Source: Pristiophorus japonicus
Taxonomy: Eukaryota
NCBI RefSeq assembly: GCF_044704955.1
Contig: NC_091984.1
Location: 177,816,001-177,880,000, forward strand
Length of the DNA: 64,000 nucleotides
Direction of reading: 5' to 3'
Below, piece after piece: positions 7,039 through 41,731 of the stretch (its first letter is position 1; each line of letters begins with the position of its first letter). Both the position numbers and the translations under genes were made by a program. Under the pieces are notes generated by a model. That model saw nothing but the letters and a program-made list of their open reading frames with translations, ran no database searches and had not been told where the DNA came from.

Positions 7039-10019
7039 TATGGCAGGGGGATGGGAACCAATGCAAGGAGACAGAGGGAAACAAAAAGGAGACAAAAGCA
7101 AAAGACAGAAAGGAGATGAGGAAAAGTGGAGGGCAGAGAAACCCAAGGCAAAGAACAAAAAGGGCCACTGTACAGCAAAATTCTAAAAGGACAAAGGGTG
7201 TTAAGAAAACAATCCTGAAGTCTTTGTGTCTTAATGCAAGGAGTATCCGTAATAAGGTGGATGAATTAGCTATGCAAATAGATGTTAACAAATATGATGT
7301 GATTGGGATTACAGAGACGTGGCTCCAGGATGATCAGGGCTGGGAACTCAACATCCAGGGATATTCAACATTCAGGAAGGATAGAATAAAAGGAAAAGGA
7401 GGTGGGGTAGCATTGCTGGTTAAGGAGGAGATTAATGTAATAGTTAGGAAGGACATTAGCTTGGATGATGTGGAATCTATATGGGTAGAGCTGCAGAACA
7501 CCAAAGGGCAAAAAACGTTAGTGGAAGTTGTGTACAGACCTCCAAACAGTAGTAATGATGTTGGGGAGGGCATCAAACATGAAATTAGGGGTGCATGCAA
7601 TAAAGGTGCAGCAGTTATAATGGGTGACTTTAATATGCACATAGATTGGGCTAACCAAACTGGAAGCAATACGGTGGAGGAGAATTTCCTGGAGTGCATA
7701 AGGGATGGTTTTCTAGACCAATATGTCGAGGAACCAACGAGGGGGGAGGCCATCTTAGACTGGGTGTTGTGTAATGAGAGGGGATTAATTAGCAATCTCT
7801 TTGTGCGAGGCCCCTTGGGGAAGAGTGACCATAATATGGTGGAACCTGCATTAGGATGGAGAATAAAACACTTAATTCAGAGACCATGGTCCAGAACTTA
7901 AAGAAGGCTAACTTTGAAGGTATGAGGCGTGAATTGGCTAGGATAGATTGGCGAATGATACTTAAGGGGTTGACTGTGGATGGGCAATGGCAGACATTTA
8001 GAGACCACATGGATGAAGTACAACAATTGTACATTCCTGTCTGGCGTAAAAAATAAAAAAGGGAAGTGGCGCAACCATGGCTATCAAGGGAAATCAGGGA
8101 TAGTATTAAAGCCAAGGAAGTGACATACAAATTGGCCAAAAATAGCGGTGAACCCGGGGACTGGGAGAAATTTAGAACTCAGCAGAGGAGGACAAAGGGT
8201 TTGATTAGGCAGGGAAAATGGAGTACGAGAAGAAGCTTGCAGGGAACATTAAGACGGATTGCAAACATGTCTATAGATATATAAAGAGAAAAAGGTTAGT
8301 AAAGACAAACGTAGGTCCCCTGCAGTCAGAATTAGGGGAAGCCATAACGGGGAACAAAGAAATGGCGGACCAATTGAACAAGTACTTTTGTTCAGTATTC
8401 ACTAAGGAGGACACTAACAACCTTCCGGATATAAAAGGGGTCAGAGGGTCTAGTAAGGAGGAGGAACTGAGGGAAATCCTTATTAGTCGGGAAATTGTGT
8501 TGAGGAAATTGATGGGATTGAAGGCCGATAAATCCCCAGGGCCTGATGGACTGCATCCCAGAGTACTTAAGGAGGTGGCCTTGGAAATAGCGGATGCATT
8601 GACAGTCATTTTCCAACATTCCATTGACTCTGGATCAGTTCCTATCGAGTGGAGGGTAGCCAATGTAACCCCACTTTTTAAAAAAGAAGGGAGAGAGAAA
8701 ACAGGGAATTATAGACCAGTCAGCCTGACATCGGTAGTGGGTAAAATGATGGAATCAATTATTAAGGATGTCATAGCAGCGCATTTGGAAAGAGGTGACA
8801 TGATAGGTCCAAGTCAGCATGGATTTGTGAAAGGGAAATCATGCTTTACAAATCTTCTGGAATTTTTTGAGGATGTTTCCAGTAGAGTGGACAAGGGAGA
8901 ACCAGTTGATGTGGTATATTTGGACTTTCAGAAGGCTTTCGACAAGGTCCCACACAAGAGATTAATGTGCAAAATTAAAGCACATGGGATTGGGGGTAGT
9001 GTGCTGACATGGATTGAGAACTGGTTGTCAGACAGGAAGCAAAGACTAGGAGTAAATGGGGATTTTTCAGAATGGCAGGCAGTGACTAGTGGGGTACCAC
9101 AAGGTTCTGTGCTGGGGCCCCAGCTGTTTACACTGTACATTAATGATTTAGACGAGGGGATTAAATGTAGTATCTCCAAATTTGCGGATGACACTAAGTT
9201 GGGTGGCAGTGTGAGCTGTGAGGAGGATGCTATGAGGCTGCAGAGCGACTTGGATAGGTTAGGTGAGTGGACAAATGAATGGCAGATGAAGTATAATGTG
9301 GATAAATGTGAGGTTATCCACTTTGGTGGTAAAAACAGAGAGACAGACTATTATCTGAATGGTGACAGATTAGGAAAAGGGGAGGTGCAATGAGACCTGG
9401 ATGTCATGGTACATCAGTCATTGAAGGTTGGCATGCAGGTACAGCAGGCGGTTAAGAAAGCAAATGTCATGTTGGCCTTCATCGCGAGGGGATTTGAGTA
9501 CAGGGGCAGGGAGGTGTTGCTACAGTTGTACAGGGCCTTGGTGAGGCCACACCTGGAGTATTGTGTACAGTTTTGGTCTCCTAACCTGAGGAAGGACATT
9601 CTTGCTATTGAGGGAGTGCAGCGAAGGTTCACCAGACTGATTCCCGGGATGGCGGGACTGACCTATCAAGAAAGACTGGATCAACTGGGCTTGTATTCAC
9701 TGGAGTTCAGAAAAATGAGAGTGGACCTCATAGAAACGTTTAAAATTCTGATGGGTTTAGACAGGTTAGATGCAGGAAGAATGTTCCCAATGTTGTGGAA
9801 GTCCAGAACCAGGGGACACAGTCGAAGGATAAGGGGTAAACCATTTAGGACCGAGATGAGGAGAAACGTCTTCCCCCAGAGAGTGGTGAACCTGTGGAAT
9901 TCTCTCGCACAGAAAGTTGTTGAGGCCAATTCATTAAATATATTCAAAAAGGAGTTCGATGAAGTCCTTACTACCAGGGGTTCAAGGGGTATGGCGAGAA
10001 AGCAGGAATGGGGTACTGA
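7039..10019 (+). pseudogene. CR1 ORF2 (APE endonuclease plus reverse transcriptase), disrupted
   Basis: LNARS, ITETWL, YRPP, GDFN, SDH; DFQKAFD, GVPQGSVLGP, FADD. Split into ORFs 6882-7901, 7856-8056, 8066-8284, 8218-9393 and 9406-10065. Confidence 0.92.
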
Positions 10020-11244
10020 AGTTGCATGTTCAGCCATGAACTCATTGAATGGCGGTGCAGGCTAGAAGGGCCGAATGGCCTACTTCTGCACCTATTTTTC
10101 TATGTGTCTATGTTTCTATGAAACGTGTAAGATTATGAGGGGGCTTGACAAGGTGGATGCAGAGAGGATGTATCCACTGATAGGGGAGACTAGAGCTAGG
10201 GACATAATCTTAAAATGAGGGGCTGCCCATATAAAACTGAGATGAGGAGGAATTTCTTCTCTCAGAGGGTTGTAAATCTGTGGAATTCGATGCCTCAAAA
10301 AGCTGTGGATGCCGGGACATTGAATAAATTTAAGACAGAGGTAGACAGTTTCTTAACAAGGGAGTAAGGGGTTTTGGGGAGCTGGCAGGAAAGTGGAACT
10401 TAATCTATGGTTGGAGCAGCTATTATCGTATAAAATGGCGGAGCAGGCTCGAGGGGCTGCATTGCCTACTCCTGCTCCTATTTTTTATGTTCTTATGTTC
10501 TTATGTACAATGGCAAGTCGCTTCAGAATCTTTGTGTCATAATGCGGGGAAGCCAGTAAGGACCTCTAATCCTATCGCAATCGAGTGACCTCGCTGGAAA
10601 ACACACAGTGTGGATTTCCGTTCGTTACTGGAGCGAGCTTAGTAGTTGTGTATTCCGTCCCCAAGAAATACCTTGCCGAAACGCACCGCGTATTGGCACA
10701 AATGAATGATAACCACTTGCCGCAGATACCTGAGAGGATGGGCGTCGAGGGATATTGCACCGCATCAATTCGCTCTTCAGGACGCCCAATAGATGGTCAA
10801 AATTAGTGGTAAATCTAGCCTCCAATGCGCTACGTTCTCAGCTCCCTATTAGTGTTTTGCCTTGAACTATTGTTGCACTGAATATAACGGCTCTAAAGTA
10901 CAACTAATGTTCAGTCGGTATGCTGATTTAAACTGAACGCAAGTAATGAATGGCACTGCAACGGACAAAGCGAAGCACTCATTTATTGCGCATTGACAAT
11001 TGCGGTGCGCCCTCAGACATAAGGCAGAAAAACTGAACTGCGTTCAGCAATCTCTGCTGAAGTGTATGCGGGTTTATACTTAGAATGGCGTATCATTTAT
11101 TCCCTCATCTGTTCTGCAATATCCGATGGGAAAACTTAACGTGATCAGCTGTTAAATTATTTTTATTTTGCTTGAACTATTCACAGTGTTAGATTAATGT
11201 CTTGTGCCTGGCACATGCGTGCTAAAGACCAAAGGCTCCTTTGC

Positions 11245-11700: not shown

Positions 11701-12550
11701 GTGAGGTTTTTCAATGGCTGTTGAAATCTGAGCTGAGTTATTTCTATGCAGGATCCAGTAATCAGAGAAGGCAGATTGCGACTCAAAGAAGCGATTGCGC
11801 TATTTAATAGTGTTGAGCATATATATGCCAAATCAGGTACAGAATGCAAATAAAGCGAGGGCAAGAACGATTGGAGAGAGAGAAGGTAAAAGGGACAGAA
11901 ACAAAATGTTAAAAAATTACTTGTAAATCTCCAAGTATAATTAAAATCGGAAGAAATGAGACGCCATCACTAGTAAACGTTAATTGTCAGTGCCAGAGAG
12001 ATTGTTTGACAGTAATTAAGACTTACAGTGCTGTTAAGGGAATCCTTATATCGGAATGGACAAGCCCTAACTTTTCCATAGCAGTTTACTTTCTATCTAT
12101 GAGTTCAGTACAACAATTTCACGCAGTACAATGTATCATGAATGGGGAGGGAGAGAGCGGGATGCGGTTTTTGGGAAGTTTTTGAAGGAGCGTCGCATCT
12201 TGAACAACAACTTGCTTTCCGCAAATTCCGCATGTGCGCTCACAAGAAGTTGCTGTCCGATGTTCGCGGACATAACGATGACTCTGATTAGCCTCACAAT
12301 TATATCTACAGCAAAATCTGGGCCATAATGTATTCACTTTTTATGCTGGAACCAAACTCGCACATTATCTTTTAGCGCCAACCCTTGTTTAGGCATAAAT
12401 GTAATCTTAAATATTCTATAGAAGCAGTGTGAGCGCGCATTGTGTAGGCATTGACTTAGCACGATAGTGTGAGACGGCTGATTGTGAGTCGGCAGGGAGT
12501 TTACATGGATTTTACTTGGACTGACGCAAAATGTCTTTATGTAAAAACAG

Positions 12551-12873
12551 ATCCGCGGGCACTCTCGGTGACCGTCCTTCCGCCTTCATCGGATCAAATC
12601 GCAGCGAAGAACAGGGCGATCCTGGTATGGTTGGTGAACGGCTTTAACCTGGGCGCTGCGGAGAATGAGTGTACTGTAGATGGCAGTGTGAGAGGGAATG
12701 GTGTTGAGACCAGTAGGATGCAGCAGGAGACCGACAACACATCCAGTGTGAGCAGTTATCTGACTCTGCCAGCCTCAGAGTGTAACTCGCACGTGCTTTA
12801 CTCCTGTGTGGTTAAACACGAGACTCAGGCAAACCCGCTTCAAACAAGCATCGCCAGATCCAGCTGTGTCTGA
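12551..12873 (+). pseudogene. Cluster 1 lambda constant exon
   Basis: Acceptor ACAG at 12547-12550. PRALSVTVLPPSSDQIAAKN..GVETSRMQQETDNT.SVSSYLTL..YSCVVKHE..SIARSSCV*. Frame is open, but the first Cys is Trp and the core Trp is Cys. Confidence 0.93.
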
Positions 12874-14214: not shown

Positions 14215-14439
14215 ACTAGGAGGGATGACCACAAGCTTGGTCAGAGATGGGGTCTAAGGAAGGTCTTAAAAAGGAGAGGCACGTAGAGAGATTTAGGGAG
14301 TGAATTCTAGACCACAGAGCCAAGATTGCTGTAGCCGCGGCTCCCATTTGTGGTGCAAATTGAATGGGGAATGGGGGAAGAGGCTCTGCTGGAGACAGGC
14401 AGTGTGCTCGAACGGTGCCGGGCACGAGGAGGTTACAGA

Positions 14440-14765
14440 AATCTGGGGACCTTTGTTCATGCAACAAAAAAGTTAGTATGCAGGAAGTGCAAGTAATTAG
14501 TAAGGCAAATTGAATGTTAACCTTTATTACAAGGGGTATAGAGTAAACAAGTAGGGAAGTCCTGCTACAATTACAGGGCGTTGGTGAGACCACACTTGGA
14601 GTACTGCGAACAGTTTTGGTCTCCTTATGTAAAGAGGAATGAACTTGCATTGGAAGCAATTCAAAGAAGAATCCTGAGATGAAGGTGTTGTGAAATGAAG
14701 AAAGGTTGAGCAGGTTGGGCGTATACTCATAGGAGTTTAGAAGAATGAGAAGTGACGTTATTGAA
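14440..14765 (+). mobile_element. CR1 RT C-terminal fragment
   Basis: Degenerate LVRPHLEYC and GAGTTTAGAAGAATGAGA segments. Confidence 0.7.
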
Positions 14766-15244
14766 GAGTATATCTCTCTGCCCACGCCTCTCTCTATCTC
14801 TTCCCCTCCCCCTGCCCAGCCTCTCTCGCTATCGGGCCCAAGGACTGAAGCTATCGGATCCCCGGCAGCCGCTCTCGGGCCCAGGACCACCGGCAGCTCA
14901 CGAGCCCACGCCCGAGGGAGCGATTCGGGACAGAGCGAGGGAGCAAGTCGGCGAGGGATCGAGTCGGCGAGTGAGTGAGTCGAGGCCTAGCAAGGGAGCG
15001 AGTCCTGGAGGGGTGGAGGGAGCAAGTCAGTGAGGGAATCAGCGGAGTCTCGAGCCTCAGGTCATGCGGCACCACGTGGAGGGAATGATTCGAGGCACCG
15101 GAGGGGCGGCCGGAGCTTGACAGCGAGCGTGGATTGTCGCCTGTCGGTCAAAAAAGTGCAATACGTGCAGGGGGGCGGGGGTGGGTGTGTGGTGGGGATG
15201 GACGCCTCTCTGTCAAAGAAAAGTGCAATACAAATAATTAATTT

Positions 15245-16010
15245 GTTCAGATAATGGCGCCAAGTGGCAGCAGGCAGACGATGAAGTGATGGGGAACATA
15301 AACAGATCCTTGCCGGAATCCAGAAGTAATAGTGTGGGTGGGAAGAGAATCCATTGCTGGAGAGGTTTTGGCTAAGATGGGGTAGGTAACAGTGGAACCA
15401 AGGAACGATAGGGCATTGGAAGAAGATGGTGCATTCAACCATGTCAAAGACTGCGGAGGGGTCGTAAAGGACGTGGCTGAATTCTGAACCATGGTCACAG
15501 TCAGAGAGTATGTCATTTGTTTCTTTGATTAGGGCTATTATGGTGGTGTGGCAGTGGTGGAAATCTAATTGCAGAGTTTCAAACATCGTGTTGTGGAAAA
15601 AATGTGCATGGCTTTGGGAGGTAATAACACGCTTAATGACGTTGAAGTGGAAAAAGAAGTTGGAGATGGTGTGGCAGTTTAAAAGGACAGAGGGGTCAAG
15701 AGTGTTTTTTGAGGACAGGAGAGATGATAGCAGTTTTCAAAGGAAGAAGTCAATGCTTGAACAGAGGTAACTGTTTACAATGTTAGCAGGCATGGGGAAC
15801 AAAAAGGGAAGCACGGTGGTCAGCAGTTTAGTGAGAACGTATCAAGTAACAGCATGTAGGTCCTCTGGACCAGATAAGCTTGGAGAGGGAATAGAAGAAA
15901 AAGTAGAGAACATTACAGGTTCAGGCATAGGACAGAGAGGAAGGGGGAAGCAAAGAGGCAACAGAGTGGATAAATCCCAGTGACAAGGAACTCCATGAGC
16001 ATCTCATTCT
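15245..16010 (-). mobile_element. L2 LINE RT fragment
   Basis: ORF 15062-15586 includes TIIALIKETNDIL..DPSAVFDMVE (the DLSAAFDTV motif). Paralogous copy at 56265-56660. Confidence 0.7.
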
Positions 16011-17760
16011 AGCCAAAGGCAAGTAAGTACGGATTTATGAAAGGGAAATCGTGTTTAACAAATCTGTTAGAATTTTTTGAGGTTGTAACTAGCAGGGTAG
16101 ATAAGGATGTAGTTTATTTGTATATTTAAAAAAGCATTAGATCAGGTGCCACATTAGGATTAACGGGATTCGGGGTAATATTTTAGCATGGATAAAGTAT
16201 TTATTAATGGAGAGAAAGTAAACTGGTCATTTTCGGATTGGCAGGCTGTAACTAGTATGGGACCGCATGAATCAATGCTTGGGCCTCAGCTATTTGCAAT
16301 CGATATCAATGGCTTAAATGAGCGGACTGGGTCTAATATATTCACGTTTGCTGACGATACAATGCTGGGCGGTAAGCAAGTTGTGAGGAGGACATAAGAA
16401 CATAAGAAATATTAGCAGGAGTAGGCAACCTGGCCCTCGAGCCTGTTCCTCCATTTAATAAGATCATGGCTGATCTGATCATGGACTCAGCTCCATTTAC
16501 ATAAGAACAAAAAAACATAAGAACATAAGAAATAGGTACAGGAGTAGGACATACGGCCCCTCGACGCTGCTCCGCCATTCAATAAGATCATGGCTGATCT
16601 AATCATGGACTCAGCTCCACTTCCCCGTCCGCTCCCCATAATCCCTTATCCCCTTATTGTTTACGAAACTGCCTATTTCTGTTTTAAATGTATTCAATGT
16701 CCCAGCTTCCATAGCTCTCTGACACAGCGAATTTCAGATTTATAACCCTCTGAGAGAAGAAATTTCTCCTCATCTCTGTTTTAAATGGGCGGCCCCTTAT
16801 TCTAATATCGTGCCCTCTGGTTCTATTCTTCCCCATCAGTGGAAACATCCTCTCTGCATCCACCTTGTCAAGCCCCCTCGTAATCTTATACGTTTCGATA
16901 AGATCATCTCTCATTCTTCTGAATTCCAATGAGTAAATGGCCAATCTCCCTGCTTCCCTGCCCGCTCCCCATAATCCTTTATTCCCTTATCGATGAAAAA
17001 TCTGTCTATCTCCGCCTTAAATATATTCAATGACCCAGCCTCCGCAGCTCTCTTGGGCAGAGAATGCCATAGATTTACAACCCTCTGAGAGAAGAAAATT
17101 CTCCTAATCTTAGAACGCAAAGAGGCTGCAAAGGGATATAGACAGTTTAACTGAGTGGGCAAGAACATGGCAGATGGATTATAATGTGGAGAATTGTGAA
17201 GTTATCCAGTTTGGTCAGAAGCATTGAAAAGTAGTGTACAGTTTTAGTCTCCTTACCTAAGGAAGGATACCTGCCATGGATGAAGTACAACATAGGCTCA
17301 CTAGACTAATTCCTGTGATGGGGGCATTGTCCTATGAGGAGAGTAGACCAGACCTATATTCCCTAGAGTTTAGAAGAATGAGAGGTAATCTCATTGAAAC
17401 GCATACAATTCTTAAGGGGCTTGACAGGGTAGATGCTTTGAAGATATTTCCCCTGGCTGAGGATTCTAGAACCAGGGTCACAGTCTCAGAATAAATGGTT
17501 GACATTTTATGATGCAGCTGTGGAGAAATGTTTTCACTTAAACGGTTCTGAATTTTTGGAATTCTGTACCCAGAGGGCTGTAGATGTCCAGTTGTTGAGT
17601 ATATTCAAGACAGAGATCGATAGATTTTTGGATACTTAGGGAAGCAACGGATATCAGGATAGTGTGGGAAGTTAGAGTTGAGGTAGAAAATCAGTCATGA
17701 ACAGCGGAATAGTTTCGAAGGACCGAATGATCTACACCTCCTTTTATTTCTTATGTTCCG
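16010..17760 (+). mobile_element. CR1 fragment with inverted CR1 3'-end pieces inserted (~16394-17110)
   Basis: RT motifs GPQLF..FADD on the + strand, CR1 3' ends with (CATAAGAA)n on the - strand. Paralog at ~56670-57780 lacks the inverted inserts. Confidence 0.75.
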
Positions 17761-17890
17761 AAATAAAGGAATATATTTATTTAAACAAACTTACAGAATA
17801 CTTTCCACAACATGCACCTTATCTTGGCTTAGTTCCGTGCATAGGTATATGCAACATATATGATCGTTCCTTCATTTCATCCTGGATATT

Positions 17891-18444
17891 TGTTTTGGAT
17901 CAATAATAATAGGCCCAGGTTCGGGATCTGGATGAATGTTAAATAAGGGACAAGACAAATGAAGTAAAGAATAAAACATCGTTTACTGAGAGAAAAGAAA
18001 CATTAATAATACAGTTTACAAAGAAATGAGAAGTATGATAAGATGCAACAACGCTCACGGCCTTCCGCCCGTCGGGAACTCCACAAGCGATGGCTGGTCT
18101 GGAGCATTGGGGGTCCCGGCACCGCTCGCGAATCACGGTCCAAGGTGAAGTTCAAAGAGCTACGGGACAGTGCAGTACCTTTATACAATCAAATAAACAT
18201 ACTATTGAACAAAACATGGGTGCATGTGGCTTATGGCCAACTCCTAATCTGTAAGGCCCCAGGTGCTTGTCCACAAAGCATGAGACCTCGAGCCACGGAC
18301 CGTCTCCAAACTAGCTGGTGTGCATCTCAAGGTTGCATTTCCTCTCTCTCTCTAGCAACAACATTCACGAGGCATGAAGCAGAGACACAATGTAAATGAC
18401 TAAATATCATAATTAACCCTATATTATTAACCCTATACAATACA
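17891..18444 (-). repeat. 3' LTR (554 bp)
   Basis: About 93% identical to 25263-25813 by manual count. Minus-strand TATAAA near 18183 and AGTAAA at 17982-17987. Confidence 0.95.
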
Positions 18445-18454
18445 ATCCACCCTT
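18445..18454 (-). other. Polypurine tract
   Basis: Minus strand AAGGGTGGAT directly precedes the TG of the 3' LTR. Confidence 0.75.
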
Positions 18455-18468
18455 GATATTTAGACATT

Positions 18469-20432
18469 CTATGTAATATAATCAATTTGAAGGTGTAATG
18501 CATCAGTTACACGTTGAGTATATGCAAGCAACGCCCGCAATCTACACCAAAGAATACATACAAACAGTAACGCGACAAGTAAAACAACAATAGGATGTAT
18601 TAACAGCTTCAAAGCAGCGGATGTTTTTAGGGACCATCCGTAAAAAATGTCCCACCAATGGTGTACCGTAAGGTCAGTGACTGTTGTTGCAAATCTGACC
18701 AAGGTGCCTTCACTGTAACTCATAGCAACTTGCAGAGTATGAAGCATACACCCTCAATTTGCTCAATTCATCAGTGACCTTTTGATTATCTTTTAGAAAT
18801 TCAGCTAAATGAGTTAGGTCTGCAGTGGGAGGAAGGTTAGTAATGCCTAGGACGGTGCGATGGTGCACAACATTTTTCCATCGTCCTAATTGATATGACC
18901 TTTTAGAATGAAGGTCATATATGGTATACACATATTTAAAACAAGCATTTAGAGGAGGATCTTGACGGGCGCCGTCAAGATAAATGGGATAGACACTAGT
19001 AATACAAACATGATTCTGTCCAATTTCATGTAAAATTGTATCATTGTATGGTACAAGTGTCCAAATACATGGTCCCGCTGTATGCTGTAGGGAGCATGGT
19101 TCAAACACAGGTGTGTGCAAAGGACACATGATACCGAAGGACCATATTTGACAATTTTGAGCTTAGTGAGTTCTATTGCTAGTATCAATCCATCCACCTT
19201 GAACTCGGGTACCCACAGATTTTGGCCATACAGATGGGGAAGCACTATAAACTGGCACCAAGTGTTGGTTTTTGTGATATTGACTATTCTCATAATAAAG
19301 TTACACCGCTGGTCATCACAATGTGTATGTTGCATATCAGGTTTTACCCCTAGATTTCTATTGCCGAAGTGGAATATTTTGCTCCAACTATTTGCATACC
19401 CTGACAGGGCAATACGTTCTAACTTGGCCCTTAATAGCTGCCGGGTTATTTCTTCAAACATGCATTGTGTGTGATGACCTAATTCTTCTTGTCACCCGGT
19501 AGCACTCCCTATCTCTTGAATAGTTTTAACTATGTGTTCCCATCACATTATGTCCAACAGCCAACTAGAAAACATCTGTTCTATGAGACCTCTGTCCCAT
19601 GCATTTCGCAATCGAATTGCATCTCCAGTGAGTCTCCCTACCTTTTGTATTTTGTTTTGTAAGGTCTCGATATCCATAGAGTTTAATGGTCCAATCCCCG
19701 TTCCTACTCCTCCTAATATTGTGGCTAATATATTACGCCTTTGTCTTACTAACATTTTCAGATTTGCTTTAATTGTTGCTATATTACAAGTGTCAGACGG
19801 CCTGTCCGCATACCGGACTTGTAGTGTGAGACTCAATATGGGTGGGGATGTAACCACAGGTGTACATGTAGCGTGTAGTCGTTGCAAATGATCCATGGGG
19901 CTCTTAGAATGCTTAACTACAGGCATTGACCAAAAGTGGCCTATAATTCCCCTACCAGTGATTTCAGAGGCATTTTTACATCCATACCATAGAGACGCAT
20001 TTAACTTAATTTCGCCTGACATAGTGTCATTGCTTGATGTAACGCTGCGGGCCCAACTCCTTAACCACGTGGCGTTGTGCAATAACGACAGATTGGGGTG
20101 CATATTGGAAGTCATTGTCATATCTTTTTGCCACTTGATTGATAACGTGATGCTGGCCCCTGTGCTTACTGTTAATAGCACCTGTCCTGGGCCTCCCCAG
20201 TACCCGAATGCATCACAAGTGAGCTCCAGTATCCTATAGTGCAGGCTTGCCTGGTAGGACAGGTAAAATTGTCTTGTGTACGATCAGTGTTAACTAACCG
20301 CCATCCTATACGGCCATCCCATGCTGTGCTTGAGGATGGAAGTAGCACAGTCAAAGATAACGAGACACAGAGACTGGCCAGCACGAGTTGGTAAGTCACC
20401 ATTTTGGGCAGAATTCCTTTGGGACGAAACAT
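18469..20432 (-). pseudogene. env: ERV env (about 650 codons, frameshifted)
   Basis: Signal peptide LVLASLCVSLSLTVLL. Furin site RQRR (19746-19735), then fusion peptide NILATILGGVGTGIG. HHWWDIFYGWS, TM helix LLIHPIVVLLVALLFVCILW and a short tail. Confidence 0.88.
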
Positions 20433-20445
20433 AAGTATGTTAATT

Positions 20446-23400
20446 TCAGCCTCGTTTAGTCAATTTACCCTTGTCAACACAGAGAGGAATATCTTGACCA
20501 GTCAGGAGCACCCAATAATGTTTCCTTCTCCTTTCGCGAAGAATTCCCCTGCTTGAAAGATTTTCAGGGGGTACTGCACCCACACTTTTCCTTCTTCCCA
20601 AACTGTGTCCTGAGTCTGATTTTCTTTTTCAATAGTAGGGACACTAACTTTGCCTAACATGTGGCTTATGGGAGTTCCCCCCGCAATGGTCGGTGATTCA
20701 GATTGTGCACTGCGTGTGGCAAGACCTTTAACTACCCTTGCAATATGTTAGTGGGAGTTAATATTTTAATCTGTTGCTTAAGTAATCCATTCATGCGTTC
20801 TATTAACCCTGCAACTTGTGGATAGTAAGATATGTGAAACATCCAATAGATCCCGTTGTCTATCGCCCACTGTTGCACTGTTTGACCTGTGAAGTGCGAC
20901 CCATTATCGGACTGTACTTCTGCTGGCTCACCGTAGTATGTGATTAAATTCTCTAGTCCTTTAATCGTACTTTGTTGATTCGCTTTAGTCACTGGATAAG
21001 CTATCAAAAGCCCAGAATAGGTATCAACAACAGTGAGCAAATATTGGAACCGTTGTTGCAATGGTAAAGATCCTACATAATCAACTTGCCATATTTGTGC
21101 TAGTTGAGTCTCTCTCTTAATATGGGCACCGGTTTTCCATTGTCGGGGAAAATGCTTCCCCTTTTGACAAATTTCACAGGTGTTTATGACCTGTTTAACA
21201 CCGTCCGTAGTCAAATGTAACCACCTATTTCGTGCCCATTGTATCGTACCCTGAATGCCCAAATGTCCAGATTTATGGTGGGGCCACTTGCCTATGCCAT
21301 ATTTTTCCTCTTCTGCCTTTTTTACAGCCCGCACCCAGGCTATATTATCAACGGTGTTATTATATTCAGAGGTCTTCGAAGTGTTTTTCCTGTGAGCGTC
21401 CACATGATATACAGTTATTTTCATCTTCTGGGCTTTGGACCATATTTGTTCCCATAGGTGCTTTCCCCACAAGTCTTTCCCAGTTATTTTCCAGTTATGT
21501 TCATGCTAGTTTCGCATCCAGCTCGCCATGCCATTGGCTACTGCCCATGAGTCAGTATATATGTGTACTTGTTGCTGTTCCTCTTCTAACGCAAGGACTA
21601 CAGCTGCTAGTTCTTCTAGCTGGCTGGAGCCTCTCACACCTTCATCATGCACAATTGTCTAGGTTTTTGGATTGAAGGTAACGGCTCCCCATTGCCGAAG
21701 GCCGTTTCGCCAGACCACTGAGCCATCTGTGAACCAGGCATGGCTACGCTCTTCAGGTGTTAACTGTTCAAAAGACACGCCCCACAAGATTGGTGACTCC
21801 TGCGTTAAACTGACAGATGACTGTGCAAGTTCACTCTCAGCTGTTTGTGGGTATTCAGCCACATGCTCATGTCGTCGGGTGATTCCTTCTTTTCCTTTAC
21901 TTGCTCTGTCTGCGATATACCATTTTCAGCGCACTATGGAGCTCTGCTGCGCTCACTCTGTGTGTCTCATTTTCTGAGAGAACCCAGGATAATATGGGTA
22001 GGTCTGGCCTTAAACTGACTTTGTCGTCCCCTGTCTGTCCTTCTGTTTCTGTTAGGGCCGAATAACATGCTAATAATTGTTTCTCAAATGGAGTGTAACG
22101 AGTAGCAGATTCTGTCAATTTTCTAGACCAGAACCCTAACGATATATGAATGCCATGTTGAACCTGCCACAAACTCCATACTGCAGTATCATTGGTAACG
22201 GATACTTGTAGCTCAAAAGGCTGTCCAGGCACTCGCGGGGCTTGGGGTAAAGCTTGAGCTACGGCTTTTTTGGCTGCATTAAAAGCCACCTGTTGTTCCT
22301 TTCCCCACTCGAAGTGGGCCTTTTTATGTGTTACGGCATACAGTGGTTCTAATAACATCGTGAGGTGAGGTATGTGTCTCCTCCAGTAACCTAATAGTCC
22401 CACGAACCGTTGTGTCTTAGTTTTATTCGTGGGGGTGGCCATTTCTTGAATTTTATTCTTCACAGGCTCGGGTATGATGCACTCCCCAGAGACCATTGGA
22501 TCCCAAGAAACTGGACATTCTGGCTAGGGCCTTGTACCTTCTTCGAATTTATCTCCCAGCCCCTGTCTCGCATGTGTTGGACTAAAATAACTAGGGCTTC
22601 TGACACCACTGCCTCGGTAGGACCCTGATTAGTGCATCATCGATGTAATGTGCCAGTGAGACGTTAGGAGCCAAAGTGCACATGTCCAGGTCCCGGGCCA
22701 CCAAACCATGGCATAGGGTAGGGCTATGTAGGTAACCATGAGGTAGGCGTTTAAACATGTATTGCCTTCCTTCCCAAGTGAATGCAAACTGGTCCTGGGA
22801 TTCTTCCTCTATTGGAATGGAGAAAAAGGCATTTGCCAGGTCGCTTACTGCAAACCATTCCGCACCTTCTTCAGACAGCCGCTCTGTTATAGTTAATACA
22901 TCTGGGACAGCGGTTGCCAGGGGAGGGCCAAATTTGTTCAGTTGTCGGTAGTCCACAGTCATCCTCCAACATTTGTCGGGTTTCTGCACAGGCCAGACAG
23001 GGCTATTGTAGGGGGACACCACATGTCTAATGATACCCGCTTCCAAGAGCTCTTGTATGGTTTCCCCTATTTCTTTGTGTCCTCCAGGTATTCGGTACTG
23101 TTTCATAGTCAGTATACGCGATGGCCGTGGTATTACCACTGGTTCCCACTTTGCTTCCGCTACAATCACAGTGATCGCCCGTATCCAGAATGAGAATCGC
23201 CTGAATGAGGTGCTGTGTGTGGTTCCCTTTAAAAGGTCCATCCCAATAATATGTTCCTTTACTGCCTATATTAAGACCATTACCCAGTGTGGAGGCCCAT
23301 TTCCCAACGCCATTCTGATATTTGTTCGGACAGCGGGCGTTTCTGCCCCTCCAAACCCATTAATCATCATACGGGTCCCCGTGTGTTTCTTAGGATTTCC

Positions 23401-23563
23401 ATGGAAAATAGTAACTTCTGCTCCTGTGTCTAGTAAAGCCACATCTCTTTGTATGTTCCCCTCCCCGCCAATGTATCATAATCGGAATGTGTGGCCTCAG
23501 ATCTCGAGGAGCTTGGGTTGATCTGGTTCTAACGGGGGATACTCCCGGATCCCAGCCACAACC
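20446..23563 (-). pseudogene. pol: ERV pro-pol (protease, RT, RNase H, integrase), disrupted, no dUTPase seen
   Basis: DLRPH..IHW, ALLDTGAE; WRMTVDYR, DLANAFF, YIDD; WFTDGS; HHKSGH..CEIC, WQVD..SDNG..IERMNG. Confidence 0.93.
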
Positions 23564-25233
23564 CTAGTCGAGGGGATTACGAGCTTTCCACAGCTCTTCT
23601 ACGTTGGGGTATAGGTTAGCGGGAGATGGTTTCTCCACAACCGCTGACTTTTCGCTATCCGACTTAGTCTCCTTTCACCCTTCTCTGTTCCCGGGACGCA
23701 GTGTTGCTTCCACATAGAATACATCGCTCCTGTTGGGATTCCATCAATTTTTCCCTTGGGGACCCCTGCCTTTAGTAAAGCCGTGAACATGTCCAGTCGC
23801 ATAAATCTTTTTTTTGTCTTTCCTGACCCTATATCTTTCCCAGAGGTAGAACCTTGACACTGGTTCCGATCCCCCTCTACATTAGCCATTCTTGACTCTC
23901 GCACACTATCTTCTGCATCCTCTAACTGTCCTAACAATAGGCAAGTGTGCCCCACTCGCTGCCCTTGGGCTGGTCCCAATAATGCGAGTAGCGCACCCCT
24001 CATCATAGGAGGGCCACTCTTCATCAGCCTGCTCCGCATTCCTGCCGTAAAGAGCTCCGGATATGGCCCCTCATATTGTTGGTGACATGTTCCTCCCTGT
24101 GTTGCCATGTTGCGCAACTGTATCGCACCCTCTGCCATAGTATTCCAAGGTTTTACCTCCCCTTCCCAATCAATGGCAGAGGGATATTTTTCCCGGACCC
24201 GGATAGTAACCATGTCCCATAGCGAACCTGTGCCCTGGACATTCCGTAGCACTGTTTTGATATGGTGGTCCGTAGTCATAGTCCCCATTTTTGTTAATTC
24301 TTCGGGGTTAAGTATTATGCCTGATGCTCCCTGGTCCCAAATCCGGGTTAGCCATTCTGACAATGATTTCCCGGGTTTTTGACGAAATCGAGACCCTATT
24401 TCTTGTAACTCACTAGTGGTGAAGTCACGCACCCCTCAAGTGGTTACCGGCTGTTCCCCATCTTGCTGTTTCATTTTATTTGTCATAAGGGGTCTAGCTT
24501 CCGTGCCCGGAGTGTATGGATGAGGGTCTTTAATTTCCTCCCGTTCCCCCACCTCTCCATCTGTCCATTCATAGTCTGAGTCAAAGGAGTACCAGATATT
24601 TTTGGTGCACCACCCACAATTTTTTCCAGCTTGTATACATTCCCCTCATGATTCTGCATTGGCTTTTAAACACTCACTGGGGTCTGATTGAGCAATTGCA
24701 AACCACATGCAGCAGTAAATCAGTGCCATACAAAGGATATATTTCAAATTCATCTGTAATTTGTATCGCCTGGCTTTCTTTTTATTTTGTACTGTCGCCA
24801 GATGGCATATTAAAGCTTCTGATTGTTCACTGAACTTATCCGCCCGTCCTTGTGCAGTGCGGACCACTTCAGTCAGGGTCGCGTTTTGAATTTCCAAAAC
24901 CTTAACAGCTGTTTTTAACTGTAGGTTTTCTGCCTCACTTTCCTTAAATTGTTTACACATCGCCCTTAAGGCTATCAACAAAACCCATCCCATTTGTGAG
25001 GGACGATTTTTCTCCTGTGGGAAGCTCGCTTCCTCCAGGAGAGAGAGTACCGCGTGGAGTACGGCTCTATCTTTGTTCTGTTCCAATAACGGCGTATCCC
25101 CATGTTGCGCAGGTCCAAACCGGGCTAGCACCTTGACAAGAGAGCCAAAACTCTCATCCCTCGTGCCCCACCCTGGTATTCTATACTTCTCTCCCGCAGG
25201 AGGAGACTGCTTCTTGTCTTTTCTCTTAAACAT
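23564..25233 (-). pseudogene. gag: ERV gag (ERV-L/Fv1-type), two premature stops and a late frameshift, carrying a host insert
   Basis: Starts MFKRKDKK. CA-like FTTSELQEIGSRFRQKPGKSLSEWLTRIWDQG, then LLKAGVPKGKIDG. No Cys-His knuckle. Ends ..NPLD TAG at 23566-23564. Confidence 0.9.
24598..24753 (-). pseudogene. itgb1: Captured, intronless 5' fragment of integrin beta-1 (signal peptide plus start of PSI domain) inside gag
   Basis: [51 protein letters not shown] versus recalled human ITGB1 [51 protein letters not shown]. The only lesion is Cys>TGA at 24648-24646. Confidence 0.93.
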
Positions 25234-25241
25234 TTTACCAG

Positions 25242-25259
25242 ATCCTGTTCGTGACGCCA
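25242..25259 (-). other. Primer binding site, tRNA-Ser
   Basis: The plus strand reads ATCCTGTTCGTGACGCCA, matching the recalled 3' 18 nt of a vertebrate tRNA-Ser(CGA). It lies 3 nt from the 5' LTR. Confidence 0.85.
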
Positions 25260-25262
25260 AAA

Positions 25263-25813
25263 TGTTTTGGATCAATAATATAGTCCCAGGTTCGGGATCT
25301 GGATGAAAGTTAAATAAGAGACAAGACAAATTAAGTAAAGAATAAAACACCGTTTACTGAGAGAAAAGAAACATTAATAATAAGTTTACGAAGAAAAGAG
25401 AAGTATGATAAGATGCAACAACACTCACGGTCTTCTGCCCGTCGGGAACTCCACAAGCGATGGCTGGTCTGGAGCATTGGGGGTCCTGGCACCGCTCGCG
25501 AATCACAGTCCAAGGTGAAGTTCAAAGAGCTACGGAACAGTGCTGTACCTTTATACTATCAGATAATCATACTATTGAACAAAACATGGGTGCATGTGGC
25601 TTATGACCCACTCCTAATCTGAAAGGCCCCAGGTGCTTGTTCACAAAGCATGAGACCTCGAGCCGCGGACCGTCTCATAACAAGCTGGTGTGCGTCTCAA
25701 GTCTGCTTTCCCTCTCTCTCTCTAGCAACAAGGTCCACGAGGATGAAGCAGAGTCACACTGTAAATGACTAAATATCATAATTAACCCTATATTATTAAC
25801 CCTATACAACACA
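25263..25813 (-). repeat. 5' LTR (551 bp)
   Basis: Pairs with 17891-18444 and is followed by the PBS on the minus strand. TATAAA at 25555-25550, AGTAAA at 25358-25353. Confidence 0.95.
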
Positions 25814-25859
25814 ATATTGGAGACTTTTTGGTATTCTTTTATCGCTAATTGAAAAGCAT

Positions 25860-26913: not shown

Positions 26914-28735
26914 CATCATCATAGGAAGTCCCTCCGGATCGATGAAGACTTGCTTCCACTCAACATGAGTTCTTTGGTGGCTGTACAGTCCAATACGAAA
27001 ACCACAGCCTCTGTCACATGTAGAACAGATCGTCATTGAGGGAAGGGGTGGGTAGGACTGCTTTGCCGCACGTTCTTTCTGTTGCCTGCACTTGATTTCT
27101 GCATGCTCTCGATGACGAGACTTGAGTTGCTCAGCACCCTCCCAGATGCACTTACTCCACTTAGGACAGTCTTTGGCCAGGGACTCCCAAGTGTCAGTGG
27201 GGATGTTACACTTTTCAGAGAAGCTTTGAGGGTGTCCTTGTATTGGTTCCGCTGCCCACCTTTGGCTCGTTTGCCATGAAGGAGTTACGAGTAGAGTGCT
27301 TGCTTTGGGAGTCTCGTGTCTGGCATGTAAACTATGTGGCCTGCCGAGTGGAGCTGATAAAATGTGGGCAGTGCTTCAAGATTAGGGATGTTGGCCTAGC
27401 CGAGGACGCTAACGTTGGTGTGCCTGTCCTCCCAGGGGATTTGTAGGATCTTGCGGAGACATCATTGTTGGTATGTCTCTAGCGACTTGAGGTGTCTGCT
27501 GTACATGGTCCATCTTTCTGAGCCATACAGGTCAGCGGATATTACTACAGTCCTGTAGACCATGAGCTTGGTGGCAGTTTTGAGGGCCTGGTCTTCAAAC
27601 ACTCTTTTCCTCAGCCAGTCGAAGGCTGCACTGGCGCACTGGAGGCGGTGTTAGATCGCACCTTCAATGCTTGCTCTTGTTGATAGCAGGCTGCAGAGCT
27701 GTGGCAAGTGGTCCACGTTTTCCAGGGCCCCGCCATGGATCTTGATGACTGGGGGGCAGTGCTGTGCGGCAACGACAGGCTGGTCTTACTGATATTTGTC
27801 GTAAGCCCCATGCTTTCGTACGTCTCAGTAAATATGTCGACTACGTCCGGGAGTTCAGCCTCTGTATGTGTGCAGACGCAGGTGTCGTCCGCTTACTGTA
27901 GGTCAACGACAGAGGTTGGGTTGGTCTTGGACCTGGCCTGGAGATGGCGAAAGTTGAACAGGTTCCCACTGGTTCTGTAGTTTATTTCCACTCCAGTGGG
28001 AAGCTTGCCGACTGTGAGATGGAGCATGGCAGTGAGGAAGATTGAGAAGAGGGTTGGGGCGATGACACAGCTCTGCTTGACCCCAGTCCGGACATGTATT
28101 GGGTCTGTGATGGATCCGTTAGTAAGGATCACAGCCTGCATATCGTTGTGGAGCAGGTGGAGGATGGTGATGAACATTTGGGGGCATCCGAAACAGAGGA
28201 TACGCCATAGACCCTCGTGGTTGATAGTGTCAAAGGCCTTTGTAAGGTCGAAGAAGGCCGTGTATAAGGTCTGGCGCTGTTCCCTACATTTTTCCTACAG
28301 GTTTCACGCTGCAAAAATCATGTCCGTTGTGCCCCATAGGGGACGAAATCCACTCTGTGGCTCCGGGAGGAGCTATTCGGCCACAGGGAGAAGACAGTTG
28401 AGGTGGACTCTAGAGATGACTTTCTCAGTGGCTGATAGCAGGGAGATTCCTCTGTAGTTGCCGCAGTTGGTCTGGTCCCCTTTTTTAAAAATTGTCATGA
28501 TGACTGCATCTCTGAGATCTCCCGGCATGCTGTCCTTCCGCCAGATGCGGGAGATGAGGTCCTGTATTCGTGCCAACAGTGCCTCTCCACCATACTTCTG
28601 TGCCTCAGCAGGGATTGCATCTGCACGTGTAGACTTTTTGTTTTTAAGCTGTCTTATGGCTTTTTCTACCTCGTGCAGTGTTGGCATCTTACTGAGGTGG
28701 TGGTGGGTAGCATGCTGCGGGATGGAGTCGCAGAG
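26914..28735 (-). mobile_element. 5'-truncated RTE-clade LINE
   Basis: EVEKAIRQLKN, NYRGISLLS and GVKQSCVIAPTLF motifs, (ATG)n tail, TACCT flanks at 26909-26913 and 28736-28740. Absent from the paralogous site near 60160. Confidence 0.88.
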
Positions 28736-36571: not shown

Positions 36572-39500
36572 GAGCAGCCCTGAGAGCGTGAGAAGCCGGA
36601 GCTCAAAGTAGTTAACTGGGAGCAGCATGAGCGGAACTGTGAGGGGACAAAAATTAATCAAGTGTGACGGCACCGGAAACCAGGTAGGTGATTGGTTAGT
36701 GAGTATTTCTCTCTCTTTTGTTTCTAAACTTGGACAGTGATTTAAAGTAAGAGCCTGGATTACAGATTAAAACTATATAGAGATAATTGAAATTTCAAAA
36801 CTTGAAAACCTAATTAATTAAATAAAATACATTTGAGATGGCAGGACAGGAGATGTTTTGCAGCTGCAACTGCAGCATTTGGGCGCTGCGGGAAATCAAT
36901 GTGATCCACGGCGACTACATCTACAGTAAGTGTTGGCGACTCGAGCAACTTTGGCTCCAGGTTGATGAGCTGGAGTCCGAGCTTCAGACACAGCGAAAGT
37001 TCAGGGATGGGGAGAATTAATTGGACGTTGTGGTCCAGGAGGCAGTCACACCCCTTAAGTTAAATAATTCAAATGTGGTCGTGGTCAGGGACAGGAAGGT
37101 GTGACTACAAATGAAGGAGGTATGGGGATCCAGAATGTAGCATTGGAGAAACCTCAGCCCTTGCACTTGTCCAACAGGTACGAGGTTGTTACATCCTCTG
37201 TGGAGGAGAGCAGGGATTGCAGGGAGGATGAGCAAGCTGACCAGAGCACTGTGGCAGAGGGGGCCATTCAATTTGGTGGAGTAAACATAAATGTTGTAGT
37301 TGAAGGGGCAGTATAGTTAGGGGGATAGATACTGTTCTCTGCAGCCGAGAGTGTGAGTCCCGAAGGTTGTGTTACCTGCCCGGTACCAGGGTTAAGCAAA
37401 TCTCCTCTGAGCTGGAGAGGAACTTGGAGTGGGAGGGGAAAGATCCAGTAGTTGTGGTTCATGTAGGTACCAATGACATAGGTAGGACAAAGAATGAGGT
37501 TCTGCTGAGGGAATATGAGCAGCTAGGGGCTAAGTTAAAAAGTAGAACCACAAATGTAATACTGTCTGGATTACTACCTGAGCCATGAGCAAATTTACAT
37601 CGGGTAAATAAGGTCAGAGAGATGGCCACGTGGCTCAGAGATTGTTGTGGGAGAAATGGCACAGGCACCAGTACTGGGATAAGAGCGAGCTGTTCCATTG
37701 GGACAGGCTTCCCTTGAATCATGCTGGGACCAATGTCCTGGCGAATCGAATGATTAGTGCTGTAGATAGGGCTATACATTAAATGAGGGGGGGGGGGGTG
37801 GCTGGGAGGAATCAGGTGTGTGGAAATTTAAAAAGTCAAAGAGAAAGGAGAAAGCAATAGTGCAGGGATGCGATAGGGGTAATGATAACCAGAGTGTGAC
37901 AGGAAATTACAGTATAAACATAAGAGTGCATGAGAAAGTGGGGTCAGAGTAGCAAAAAATGAACAAAAGACAGAATTAAAATCTCCTTATCTGAATGCAT
38001 GCAGCATTCATAACAAGATGGATGAGATAACGGCAAAAATAGAAATAAAATTTAGAGATGTGGTTGCAAGGTGACCAAGGCAGGGAACTAAATATTCAGG
38101 GATTATTTTTCATTTTGGAAGGATGGGCAGAAAAGAAAAGGAGGGGAGTTAGCTCTGATAATAAAGGATGAGATCAGTGCAATAGTGAGAAAAGATATTG
38201 GCTCAGAAAATCAAAATGGAGAATCAGTTTGGGCGGAGATAAGAAATAATAAGGGAAATAAGTTACTGGTGGAAGTAGTTTACAGCCCCGCCCCCCCACT
38301 AAGAGTAGCTACACTGTACGACAGATTAAAAATCAAGAGATACTGGAAGCTTGGCAATAATCATGGGCGATTTTATTCTTGATATTGATTATACACATCA
38401 AATTGGCCAAGGTAGCCTTGAGGAAGAGTTCATATTCGGGATGGTTTCTTAGAACAAAACATTGTGAAACCAACCAGGGAGCAGACTATTTTAAATCTGA
38501 TAATGAGACTGGATTCATTAATGATCTCATAATAACGAATTCTCCTGGGAAGAATGATCACAACATGGAAGAATTTAAAATTCAGTTTGAGGGTGAGCAG
38601 CCCGGGTCTCAAACTAATGTCCTGAACTTAAATAAAACCAAACGCATGAAGACAGAATTGGCTAAAATGGACTGGGGAATAGATTAAAGGGTAAGACAGC
38701 AGAGAAGTAGTGGCAGATATTTAAAGAGATATTTTGTAACTCTCAGCAAAAATAGATTTCAGTGAGAAAGAAAGATTCTAAGAGAAGAATGAACCATCCG
38801 TGGCTAACTAAGGAAGTAAAGGATGGTGTGAAATTGAAAACAAATGTGTACAATGTTGCAAAGATTAGTGAAAGGCCAGAGGATTGGGATTTTTTTAGAA
38901 ACCAGCAAAGGACGATTAAAAAATCAATAAGGAGAGAGAAGATAGATTATGAGAGCAAACTAGCAAGAATTAATAAAACCGACAGGAAAAGCTTCTACAG
39001 GTATATAAGAAGAAAGCGAATAGCTAAATTGAAGGTTGGTCCCTTAGAGGATGAGACTGGTGAATTAAGAACGGGAAGCAAGGAAATGACAGAGACATTG
39101 AGCAAATATTTTGTATCGATCTTCACGGTAGAAGACATTTAACGCATTCCAATAATTGATAATCAAGGAGCTATTGGGAGGGGGGAACTTAAACAATCAC
39201 TGTCACTAGAGAAAAGTACAAGGCAAACTGCTGGGACGAAACATGGACAGGTCCTCTGGACCTGACGGCCTGCATCCTTGGGTCTTAAAAGAAGTTGCTG
39301 CAGAGACAATGGATTCCGTGGATTCTGGAGAGGTCCCAGCGGATTGGAAAACCGCAAATGCAACTCCCGTGTTAAAGAAAGGAAAGAGACTTAAAGGAGG
39401 AAACTATAGACTAGTTAGTCTAACATCTGTCATTGGGAAAATGCGGAGTCCATCGTTAAGGAAGTAGTAGCATGACATTTAGAACACATAATACAGTCAA

Positions 39501-41731
39501 GCAGAGTTAGCATGGTTTTATGAACGGGAAATCATGTTTGACAAATTTGCCGAAGTTCTTTGAGGATATAACGAGCAGGGTGGATAAAGGGGAACAATTA
39601 CCTGTCGTGTATTTGGATTTGCAGAAGGCATTCGATAAGGTGCCACATAAAAGATTACTGCACAAGATAACAGCTCAAAGATTTGGGGGTAATATATTAG
39701 CGTGGATAGAGGTTTGGCTAACTAACAGAAAACAGAGTGTTGGGATAAATGGGTCATTTTAAGGTTGGCAAACTGCAGATGACACAAAGATTAGTGGGAA
39801 AGTGCGTTGTGTAGAGGACACAGAGAGGCTGCAAAGAGATTTAGATAGGTTAAGCGAATGGGCTAAGATTTGGCAGATGGAATACAATGTCGGAAAATGT
39901 GATGTCATTCACCTTGGAAAAAAAACAGTAAAAGGGAATATTATTTGAATGGGGGGAAATTACAACATGCTGCGGTACAGAGGGACCTGGGGGTCCTTGT
40001 GCATGAATCCCAAAAATTAGTTTGCAGGTGCAGCAGGTAATCAGGAAGGCGAATGTAATGTTGGCCTTTATTGCGAGAGGGATGGAGTACAAAAGCAGGG
40101 AGGTCCTGCTGCAACTGTATAGGGTATTGGTGAGGCCGCACCTGGAGTACTGCGTGCAGTTTTGGTTACCTTTCTTAATGAATGATATACTAGCTTTGGA
40201 GGGGATACAGAGTCGATTCACTAGGCTGATTCCGGAGATAAGGGGGTTACCTTATGATGATAGATTGAGTAGACTGGGTCTTTATTCGTTGGAGTTCAGA
40301 AGGATGAGGGGTGATCTTACAGAAACATTTAAAATAATGAAAGGGATAGACAAGATAGAGACAGAGAGGTTGTTTCCACTGGTTGGGGAGACTAGAACTA
40401 GGGGGCACAGCCTCAAAATACGGGGGAGCCAATTTAAAACCGAGTTGAGAAGGAATTTCTTCTCCCAAAGGGTTGTGAATCTGTGGAATTCTCTGCCCAA
40501 GGAAGCAGTTGAGGCTAGCTCATTGAATGTATTCAAATCACAGATAGATAGATTTTTAACCAATAAAGGAATTAAGGGTTACGGGGAGCGGGCGGGTAAG
40601 TGGAGCTGAGTCCACGGCCAGATCAGCCATGATCTTGTTGAATGGCGGAGCAGGCTTGGGGGTTAGATGGCCCACTCCTGTTCCTAATTCTTATGTTCTT
40701 ATGTTCTTATGTAACTAGTGGGGTGCCACAGGGATCAGTGCTGGTGCCTTAACTATTTAAAATCTATATTAATGACTTGCATGAAGCGACCGAGTGTAAT
40801 TTAGCCCAATTTGCTGATGATACAAAGATAGGTGGGAAAGCAAGTTGTGAGGTAGACGTAAATAATCTGTAGAGGGATATAGATAGGCTAAGCATTTGGG
40901 CAAAAATTTGGCAAATGGAGCATGGGAAAATATGAGGTTATCTTGGTATGAAAAATAAAGAAACACATTATTATTTAAATGGAGAGAGATTACAAAATGC
41001 TGTGGCACAGAGAGATCTGCGGGTCCTTGTACATTAAACACAAAATGTTGCCATGCAGGTAGAGCAATTAATTAGGAAGGCACATGGAATTTTTACCTTT
41101 ATTACAAGGAGGATGGACTAAAAAAGTAGGGAAGTCTTGCTACAACTGTAAAGGCGTTGATGACGGCACACGTGGAATACTGCGTACACTTTAGGTCTTC
41201 TTGTTTAAGGAGGGATTTACTTGCATTGGAGACAGTTCAAAGAAGTTTCACGAGGTTGATTCCTGAGATGAGGGGTTTGTCTTATGAAGAAAAATTGATC
41301 AGGCTGGGCCTATACCAACTGGAGTTTAGAGGAATGAGAGGTGATCTTATTGAAATATAAAAGATACTGAGGGTGCTTGACAGGGTTGATGCAGAGAGAA
41401 TGTTTCCCCTCGTGGGGGAATCTAAAACTAGGGGGCATAGTTAAAGAATACGGTTCGCACATTTAAAATAGAGATGAGAAGAATTTCTTCTGTTAAGTGT
41501 CGTGAATCTTTGGAATTCTCTACCCCAGAGAACTGTGGAAGCTGGGTCTTTGAATATATTTAAGGTGGAGGTAAACAGATTTTTGAAATATAAGGGTGTC
41601 AAGGTTTATATGGAGCGGGCAGGGAAGTGAAGCTGAGGCCAAGATCGTATCAGTCATGATCATACTGCGTGGCGGAGCAGCCACAAGTAACCAAATGGCC
41701 TACTCCTACTCTTTTTTCTTATGTTCTTATG
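36572..41731 (+). mobile_element. Full-length but decayed CR1 LINE with 5' UTR
   Basis: ORF1 MAGQEMFCSCNCSIW..C plus VHVGTND, endonuclease from ~37970, RT (LDLQKAFDKVPH), (TTCTTATG)n tail. Confidence 0.88.
39776..40711 (+). mobile_element. Younger 5'-truncated CR1 nested in the CR1 above
   Basis: The host sequence GGCAAACTG|TAACTAGTGGGG is split. Clean ORF 40022-40609 and its own tail. Confidence 0.88.

Follow-up and report, generated by a model that had tools for sequence, protein, structure and literature searches.

A decayed, ERV-L-like provirus with stops and frameshifts occupies positions 17891..25813 on the minus strand of the window analysed here, a 64,000-nt stretch of Pristiophorus japonicus DNA (contig NC_091984.1, positions 177,816,001 to 177,880,000). 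Both LTRs are present on the minus strand, the 5' LTR at 25263..25813 and the 3' LTR at 17891..18444. The pair is 93.0% identical over 556 nt, and the element is flanked by a 5-bp ATATT direct repeat at 17886-17890 and 25814-25818 (target site duplication, TSD). All internal features lie on the same strand. The 5' part of gag (24754..25233, 160 codons) has TTACAG as its last letters, shows the same sequence in copies of the family that lack the insert described below, and has homologs named Fv1-like by their source. The 3' part (23599..24597) restarts at ATCTGG with the frame unchanged and has one stop near 24436. Internal to gag, between these two parts, lies a captured piece of the host gene itgb1, made up of the complete exon 2 (24684..24753, 70 nt, with the ATG and signal peptide) and the complete exon 3 (24598..24683, 86 nt, start of the PSI domain). 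Pieces of pol follow in several frames at 20732..23265, with Pfam matches to reverse transcriptase (22591-23265), RNase H (21897-22523) and integrase (20732-21505). A further region at 18660..20283, which has no Pfam match and is deleted in many other copies, we take to be env-like from its position and from a furin-site and fusion-peptide pattern.

A 5-bp TSD is a trait of class III elements. Five homologs were found for the Gag of an insert-free copy, one of them Fv1-like by its source's name (E 6.6e-68), and Fv1 is related to ERV-L gag according to the available text of PMC3948346. As judged from Gag homology and the 5-bp TSD, the provirus is a class III, ERV-L-like element. In a whale-shark protein that its source names after SDCCAG8, the first ~280 residues are a Gag related to this provirus family; a mis-joined gene model is likely here, the other explanation being a real fusion.

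The provirus lies antisense between two immunoglobulin C1-set exons (12460-12873 and 52328-52759, plus strand; Pfam E 2.3e-13 and 2.1e-25), which are 88% alike over 300 nt; their region presumably resembles a light-chain cluster. The window also holds many decayed LINE copies (5500-10500, 14400-17600, 39500-46400 and 56900-59800), which we assume to be of the CR1/L2 type, as well as another repeated element, found at 27200-28500 and 54180-55480.

Captured exons and the donor gene

Read on the minus strand, the 5' junction of the insert is TTACAG/ATG at 24754/24753 and the 3' junction is ACCAAAAAT/ATCTGG at 24598/24597. The insert (24598-24753, minus strand) has 156 nt, or 52 codons, continues the gag frame and carries neither a TSD nor poly(A). 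Residues 1-50 of integrin beta-1 match its peptide at E 3.8e-11; beta-8, the subunit ranked next, does so at E 0.0017. Pfam PSI_integrin matches the captured exon 3 at E 6.6e-05, which is below the curated cut-off, and the copy in the window has a TGA at insert codon 36.

Integrin beta genes were located by a Pfam search of the genome, and the insert was then mapped to two exons on contig C5, in itgb1 on the minus strand (G000:C5 ~250.01-250.04 Mb). Exon 2 (70 nt) is preceded by a polypyrimidine tract and CAG, begins with the ATG start and ends CAATCAG/GTAACG; exon 3 (86 nt) ends AAAAAT/GTAAGT; exon 4 starts GCATTC, unlike gag. The two exons add up to the length of the insert (70+86=156 nt), in which introns are absent and exons 2 and 3 are joined across a 5,403-nt intron (GT..AG). 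The exon 2-3 splice joint is present in contigs of three of four sequencing runs, all from other organisms. These results confirm that the insert is exactly two complete spliced itgb1 exons, as the original prediction had proposed. Its reading of the junction letters (TTACAG/ATG and AAAAAT/ATCTGG, both on the minus strand), of the lack of TSD and poly(A), and of TTACAG as part of gag, where it is present in insert-free copies, was likewise borne out. Taking the itgb1 mRNA to be ~3.7 kb with ~15 junctions, we estimate the chance of both ends falling on exact exon ends to be of the order of 1e-5.

A second itgb1-like gene (paralog B) lies head to head with the first (paralog A), ~230 kb off (C5 250,016,000-250,320,000). 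Exon 2 of 32 ERV copies is on average 96.9% identical to paralog A and 71.7% identical to paralog B, so paralog A is the donor. In exon 3 the paralogs differ at one base of 86, at which 31 of the 32 ERV copies are B-like; this is most simply explained by a later change in paralog A. Exon 2 of the two paralogs is only 74% alike, as against the single difference in exon 3, which suggests gene conversion or strong constraint. In paralog B, the I-like domain piece further downstream is apparently shortened and diverged.

The candidate first exon or exons of itgb1 lie in a CpG island ~52 kb upstream of exon 2 (L058 6900-6400, minus strand) with GC boxes and several donor-like sites, at which the candidate exon ends are GGT or AAG, not CAG. 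Two other GC-rich spots considered as exon 1 were rejected as simple repeats.

Replacement of gag sequence and spread of the insert

Junction patterns allowing up to 3 mismatches matched at least 281 insert-type and at least 263 insert-free copies genome-wide (reversed controls, 1 and 0), and these counts are lower bounds. The insert has the same junctions in all 30 of the best genome matches, with a length of 156 nt in 27 and 155 nt in 3. Insert-free copies have 69 nt between identical flanks (exactly 69 in 36 of 43). The event was therefore a replacement of 69 nt of gag and not a pure insertion, with a net gain of 87 nt and the frame kept. The 23 residues lost carry the motif KV-x-AL...W[DN]P-x-x-W, which is kept in three of the five homologs, including lizard and whale-shark proteins.

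LTR mismatch is similar in the two types (5.3% in insert copies, n=13; 5.0% in insert-free copies, n=5; p=0.63; pairs measurable in 18 of 29 copies), which indicates that they spread together. Flank alleles linked to the insert form mosaic haplotypes among 96 copies (53 insert and 43 insert-free), a pattern expected from co-packaging of, and recombination between, the two genome types. A deletion of the env region (equivalent to ~18660-20267, with ends within 20 nt) is found in 12 of 20 insert and 1 of 9 insert-free copies, and its presence in both types points to intracellular spread and recombination. The flank tree, built from 57 of 81 typed copies with short-flank copies left out, is star-like, with 4 of 54 inner branches well supported, and names no sister of the insert lineage.

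Synonymous/nonsynonymous ratios of shared and singleton changes were compared after masking of CpG sites, because CpG decay confounds them. They do not differ in the insert (shared 2/9 vs singleton 13/49, p=1) or in the gag flanks (19/50 vs 149/389, p=1), and insert-free gag likewise gave no selection signal (17/58 vs 157/457); either the test is perhaps too weak or non-autonomy extends to the entire family. We picture the captured piece as a passenger without selection signal, its signal peptide and Cys residues being freely eroded. The A of the captured ATG has changed to C in a sublineage of at least 47 insert copies, and 12 of 14 such copies examined also lack the 3' junction through a 60-nt in-frame loss that is present in other copies too. 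Both major structural changes are in frame (+87, and -60 in a sublineage), which could reflect selection on the Gag frame. A secreted Gag starting from the captured ATG is conceivable, with no support here. No chimeric protein of 112-359 residues is on record among 75 candidates. We found no report of this retrovirus with itgb1 exons in the main texts of the open-access literature searched; tables of ERV host domains such as those of PMC12287698 could list it.

Junction sequences

The original prediction placed GT, a cryptic donor, right after TTACAG in intact gag. Instead, a single degenerate pattern matched AT in 165 insert-free copies and GT in 6; a lack of GT there is an outcome that the prediction itself had named as contrary to it. 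GT nonetheless exceeds the 0.7% A-to-G background (6/171, p=0.0015), Val stands at the 5' junction position in the whale-shark Gag homolog, and the insert-type upstream haplotype is complete, at all 12 sites, in one GT copy (1/6 GT vs 0/37 AT copies, p=0.14). At the 3' junction, an AAT(A) microhomology within native residues G-N-I-W had been proposed. None of 43 insert-free copies has AAT before ATCTGG and 35 have GAC, so the native residues are G-D-I-W. AG precedes ATCTGG in three of the 43, all three obtained by a pattern selecting AG, and 40 have no AG acceptor. A family member, as a provirus or a solo LTR, had also been expected in or upstream of itgb1 intron 1. A BLAST comparison of the entire provirus with C5:250,006,001-250,276,000 and 250,290,001-250,320,000 (~300 kb, with the 14 kb between left out) matched only the exons, a 200-N run in intron 1 excepted; an unfixed provirus at itgb1 would leave no trace. 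Of the proposed combination of splicing and template switching, the exon-exact insert is therefore supported; the AAT microhomology is not, nor is the GT donor in most insert-free copies, nor the nearby provirus in the regions scanned.

At the 5' site, native gag and the intron 1/exon 2 boundary match at 10 of 12 positions with a perfect run of 5 nt; in a local null, 10/12 was attained by 11 of the 173,712 site pairs. Five of the six bases that open exon 2 match gag whatever the template. At the 3' site, the perfect run is 0 against exon 3/intron 3, 0 against exon 3/exon 4 and 2 nt against the joint of an exon 3-to-exon 2 circle; only 2 nt (AT) beyond exon 3 match the exon 2 start. Compared with the gag 5' junction, the circle joint has a perfect run of 0 on the CAG side and matches at 7/12 overall. 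Introns 1 and 3 share 6 inverted repeat matches and 5 same-strand ones. The exon 3-to-exon 2 back-splice joint was not among the joints listed, 15 of 221, from contigs of other organisms. Flank sequences of intron 1, intron 3 and exon 4 had no matches in the ERV loci examined, and folding of the native region of four copies gave no shared stem linking both junctions. Genome-wide, there were 0 matches for copies precisely missing the native segment, and 0 for other sequences captured at the same gag site with a pattern that detects only some alternatives.

Over 11 nt the gag 5' junction (24762-24752) has the same letters as the host's intron 2/exon 3 acceptor (L052 9457-9447), a site unused in the insert. 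An exon-3-only intermediate, considered from this 11/11 match, was not found among the three of its 4 matches that were examined, two being host genes and one unrelated. The AT...AC ends of the replaced 69-nt segment resemble those of an AT-AC intron, but the segment lacks a pyrimidine tract, and the resemblance is probably due to chance.

Discussion

We consider it probable that the insert arose by two template switches of reverse transcriptase (RT) onto an exon-bounded RNA, either a circle or a splicing intermediate ending at exon 3, followed by passive spread and recombination without a selection signal. The insert would stem from a single capture event during reverse transcription. RT would leave the viral genome at the gag ATCTGG site, land on the final base of exon 3 in an itgb1 RNA packaged alongside, copy spliced exon 3 and then exon 2, and go back to the viral RNA 69 nt upstream via the microhomology at the exon 2 start. 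RT jumps onto the free end of a template need no homology, or can use very little. Such a switch requires no splice donor, which agrees with the AT majority at the 5' site. The template would be a processing product and not ordinary mRNA, since exon-bounded templates explain both exact ends with at most one coincidence, whereas ordinary mRNA needs two. The recombinant, lacking the conserved Gag motif, would have travelled as a passenger that relied on help in trans and exchanged sequence with insert-free genomes.

Two such templates are considered from the junction letters. It is possible that RT went round an exon 2-3 circular RNA exactly once, moving in and out at the back-splice joint. It would have entered at the AT just beyond the joint and left at its entry point because RNase H degrades the template behind it. 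A circle copied once would explain the unit length and the AT, but it offers no account of the CAG that stands ahead of the 5' junction. Inverted intron repeats favour back-splicing; with same-strand repeats nearly as frequent as inverted ones in introns 1 and 3, they argue for it weakly. The insert is confined to the exons of the putative circle without flanks and contains no back-splice joint. By the junction letters, the circle, which the original prediction had listed as an alternative, fits no worse than the main proposal of that prediction. In our rough judgement, it is about equally likely that the template was a splicing intermediate that had kept intron 1 and whose free 3' end lay at exon 3. 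The retained intron would explain the CAG but would leave the 2-nt AT at the 3' end unexplained; 2 nt match by chance in 1 of 16 cases. Retroviruses enrich RNA processing intermediates, which the available text of PMC4997597 shows for non-coding RNAs only.

We regard as rather unlikely the explanation in which splicing joined gag, from its CAG/GT, to exon 2, the viral RNA coming from a GT-type provirus upstream of that exon or acting by trans-splicing, with RT later switching from a helper genome to the chimeric RNA where exon 3 ends. The CAG before the junction suits a donor, and the GT copies speak for this explanation, as they exceed the background and include the copy with all 12 insert-type upstream alleles. 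The two of these alleles that lie nearest occur in 4/6 GT vs 10/37 AT copies (p=0.077), and G is found in 1 of ~281 insert copies vs 6/171 (p=0.013), the denominators being unlike. The Val of the whale-shark homolog points the same way. Five captures by Drosophila BLASTOPIA also return at one fixed element site near an exon-exon junction, as described in the available text of PMC5131818. The parent genome could thus have been of GT type, the GT allele being a real minority. However, AT is the allele in 165/171 copies. The GT copies are scattered on the poorly resolved flank tree (4 changes for 4 rows) and have no excess of shared rare alleles (11 vs a mean of 8.6, with 28% of 60 random sets as high). 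The match of gag positions +2, +4, +5 and +6 to the exon start would be coincidence, and the lack of AAT microhomology leaves the exact 3' end unexplained. In addition, no family sequence lies near itgb1 in the scanned C5 regions, and the partial pattern found no other captured sequence at the gag site.

It is improbable that RT simply switched templates twice on mature linear itgb1 mRNA, both exon-exact ends being coincidental. This is the common published route, and junctions without microsimilarity exist in it (4 of 29 in the available data of PMC5131818). The match of five of six bases at the exon 2 start is indeed open to any template. Nevertheless, this route requires two independent exon-end coincidences, which we estimated at the order of 1e-5, and there is zero microhomology at the 3' end; the putative exon 1 donors of the CpG island do not end in the CAG that precedes the 5' junction. 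It is very doubtful, finally, that splicing made both junctions, whether by trans-splicing, by two flanking proviruses or by trimming of a larger captured piece of pre-mRNA. Both exact ends would then need no RT coincidence, rare GT (6) and AG (3) variants exist, and the native segment ends AT...AC. Against this, the two rare alleles would be needed together, and the letters before ATCTGG are purine-rich and form no pyrimidine tract. The genome yielded no copy with the native segment precisely removed, and the intron 1, intron 3 and exon 4 flanks are absent from all ERV loci examined.

Oncogene transduction by acute transforming retroviruses produces in-frame Gag-host fusions in defective genomes that need a helper, and the present element is like it in its Gag-host fusion in frame and its putatively helper-dependent defective genome. 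It is unlike it in that most parents lack GT, no provirus was found at the host locus in the scanned regions, and there is no sign of a selected host product. Readthrough, splicing and then non-homologous recombination is the route given for these viruses in the available text of PMC4997597.

LTR-mediated retroposition is recognised by microsimilarity together with a captured piece standing in place of part of an internal ORF (Tan et al. 2016, PMC5131818). As in the cases described in the available text of that paper, the host piece here is spliced and lies in an internal ORF, microsimilarity is found at one junction, the insert has no poly(A) or TSD, and amplification was secondary and non-autonomous. 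In those cases, however, the ends fall anywhere, with one near an exon junction in BLASTOPIA, and copies number 1-5 (Bs1) or few, whereas here both ends are exact exon ends and copies number in the hundreds; the 3' junction here also has no identical run to linear RNA. With most of its features present, the capture works like LTR-mediated retroposition. Host mRNA sequence in several copies of an ERV lineage is also known from CrocERV29 (KIT-ligand) and CrocERV31 (nectin3) of crocodilians (PMC4299795) and from host domains in bird ERVs (PMC12287698). Those captures, as far as the available texts describe them, are whole or nearly whole ORFs at pol or env, under purifying selection and in 6-9 copies; the present one is a 52-codon in-frame swap within gag with no selection signal.

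The mouse circRFWD2 pseudogenes, whose mechanism was termed mysterious (Dong et al. 2016, PMC4897178), are likewise confined to circle-forming exons from exon 2 on, lack poly(A) and are associated with LTRs. High-confidence circRNA pseudogenes, as defined in the available text of that paper, contain the back-splice joint; the present insert extends at most 2 nt past it and would fall into the 'low-confidence' class. It differs from the mouse cases in its unit length and in having a known insert-free parent. The sole mention of ITGB1 in PMC8300399 is in a pathway table that lists circRNA host genes and gives no exons.

The capture of host genes by LTR elements is already known, and its junctions usually lie anywhere; here, both ends are exact splice boundaries. 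The genome retains all three parties, namely the donor gene, ~260 insert-free parents and ~280 recombinants, which allows the junctions to be read base by base. Together with the exact ends, they argue for an RNA-processing product as the template. If the circle is the true template, the insert with its preserved insert-free parent would give the missing mechanism for LTR-associated circRNA pseudogenes, and the open question of such retrocopies would become directly testable. The signature to search for would be ERV inserts equal to whole internal exons. Unit-length, exon-exact ERV inserts would then be a hidden fossil class of ancient circRNAs, missed by pipelines that rely on the back-splice joint. 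A 52-codon host piece in half of the family without detectable selection is also a caution against reading captured host domains as adaptive.
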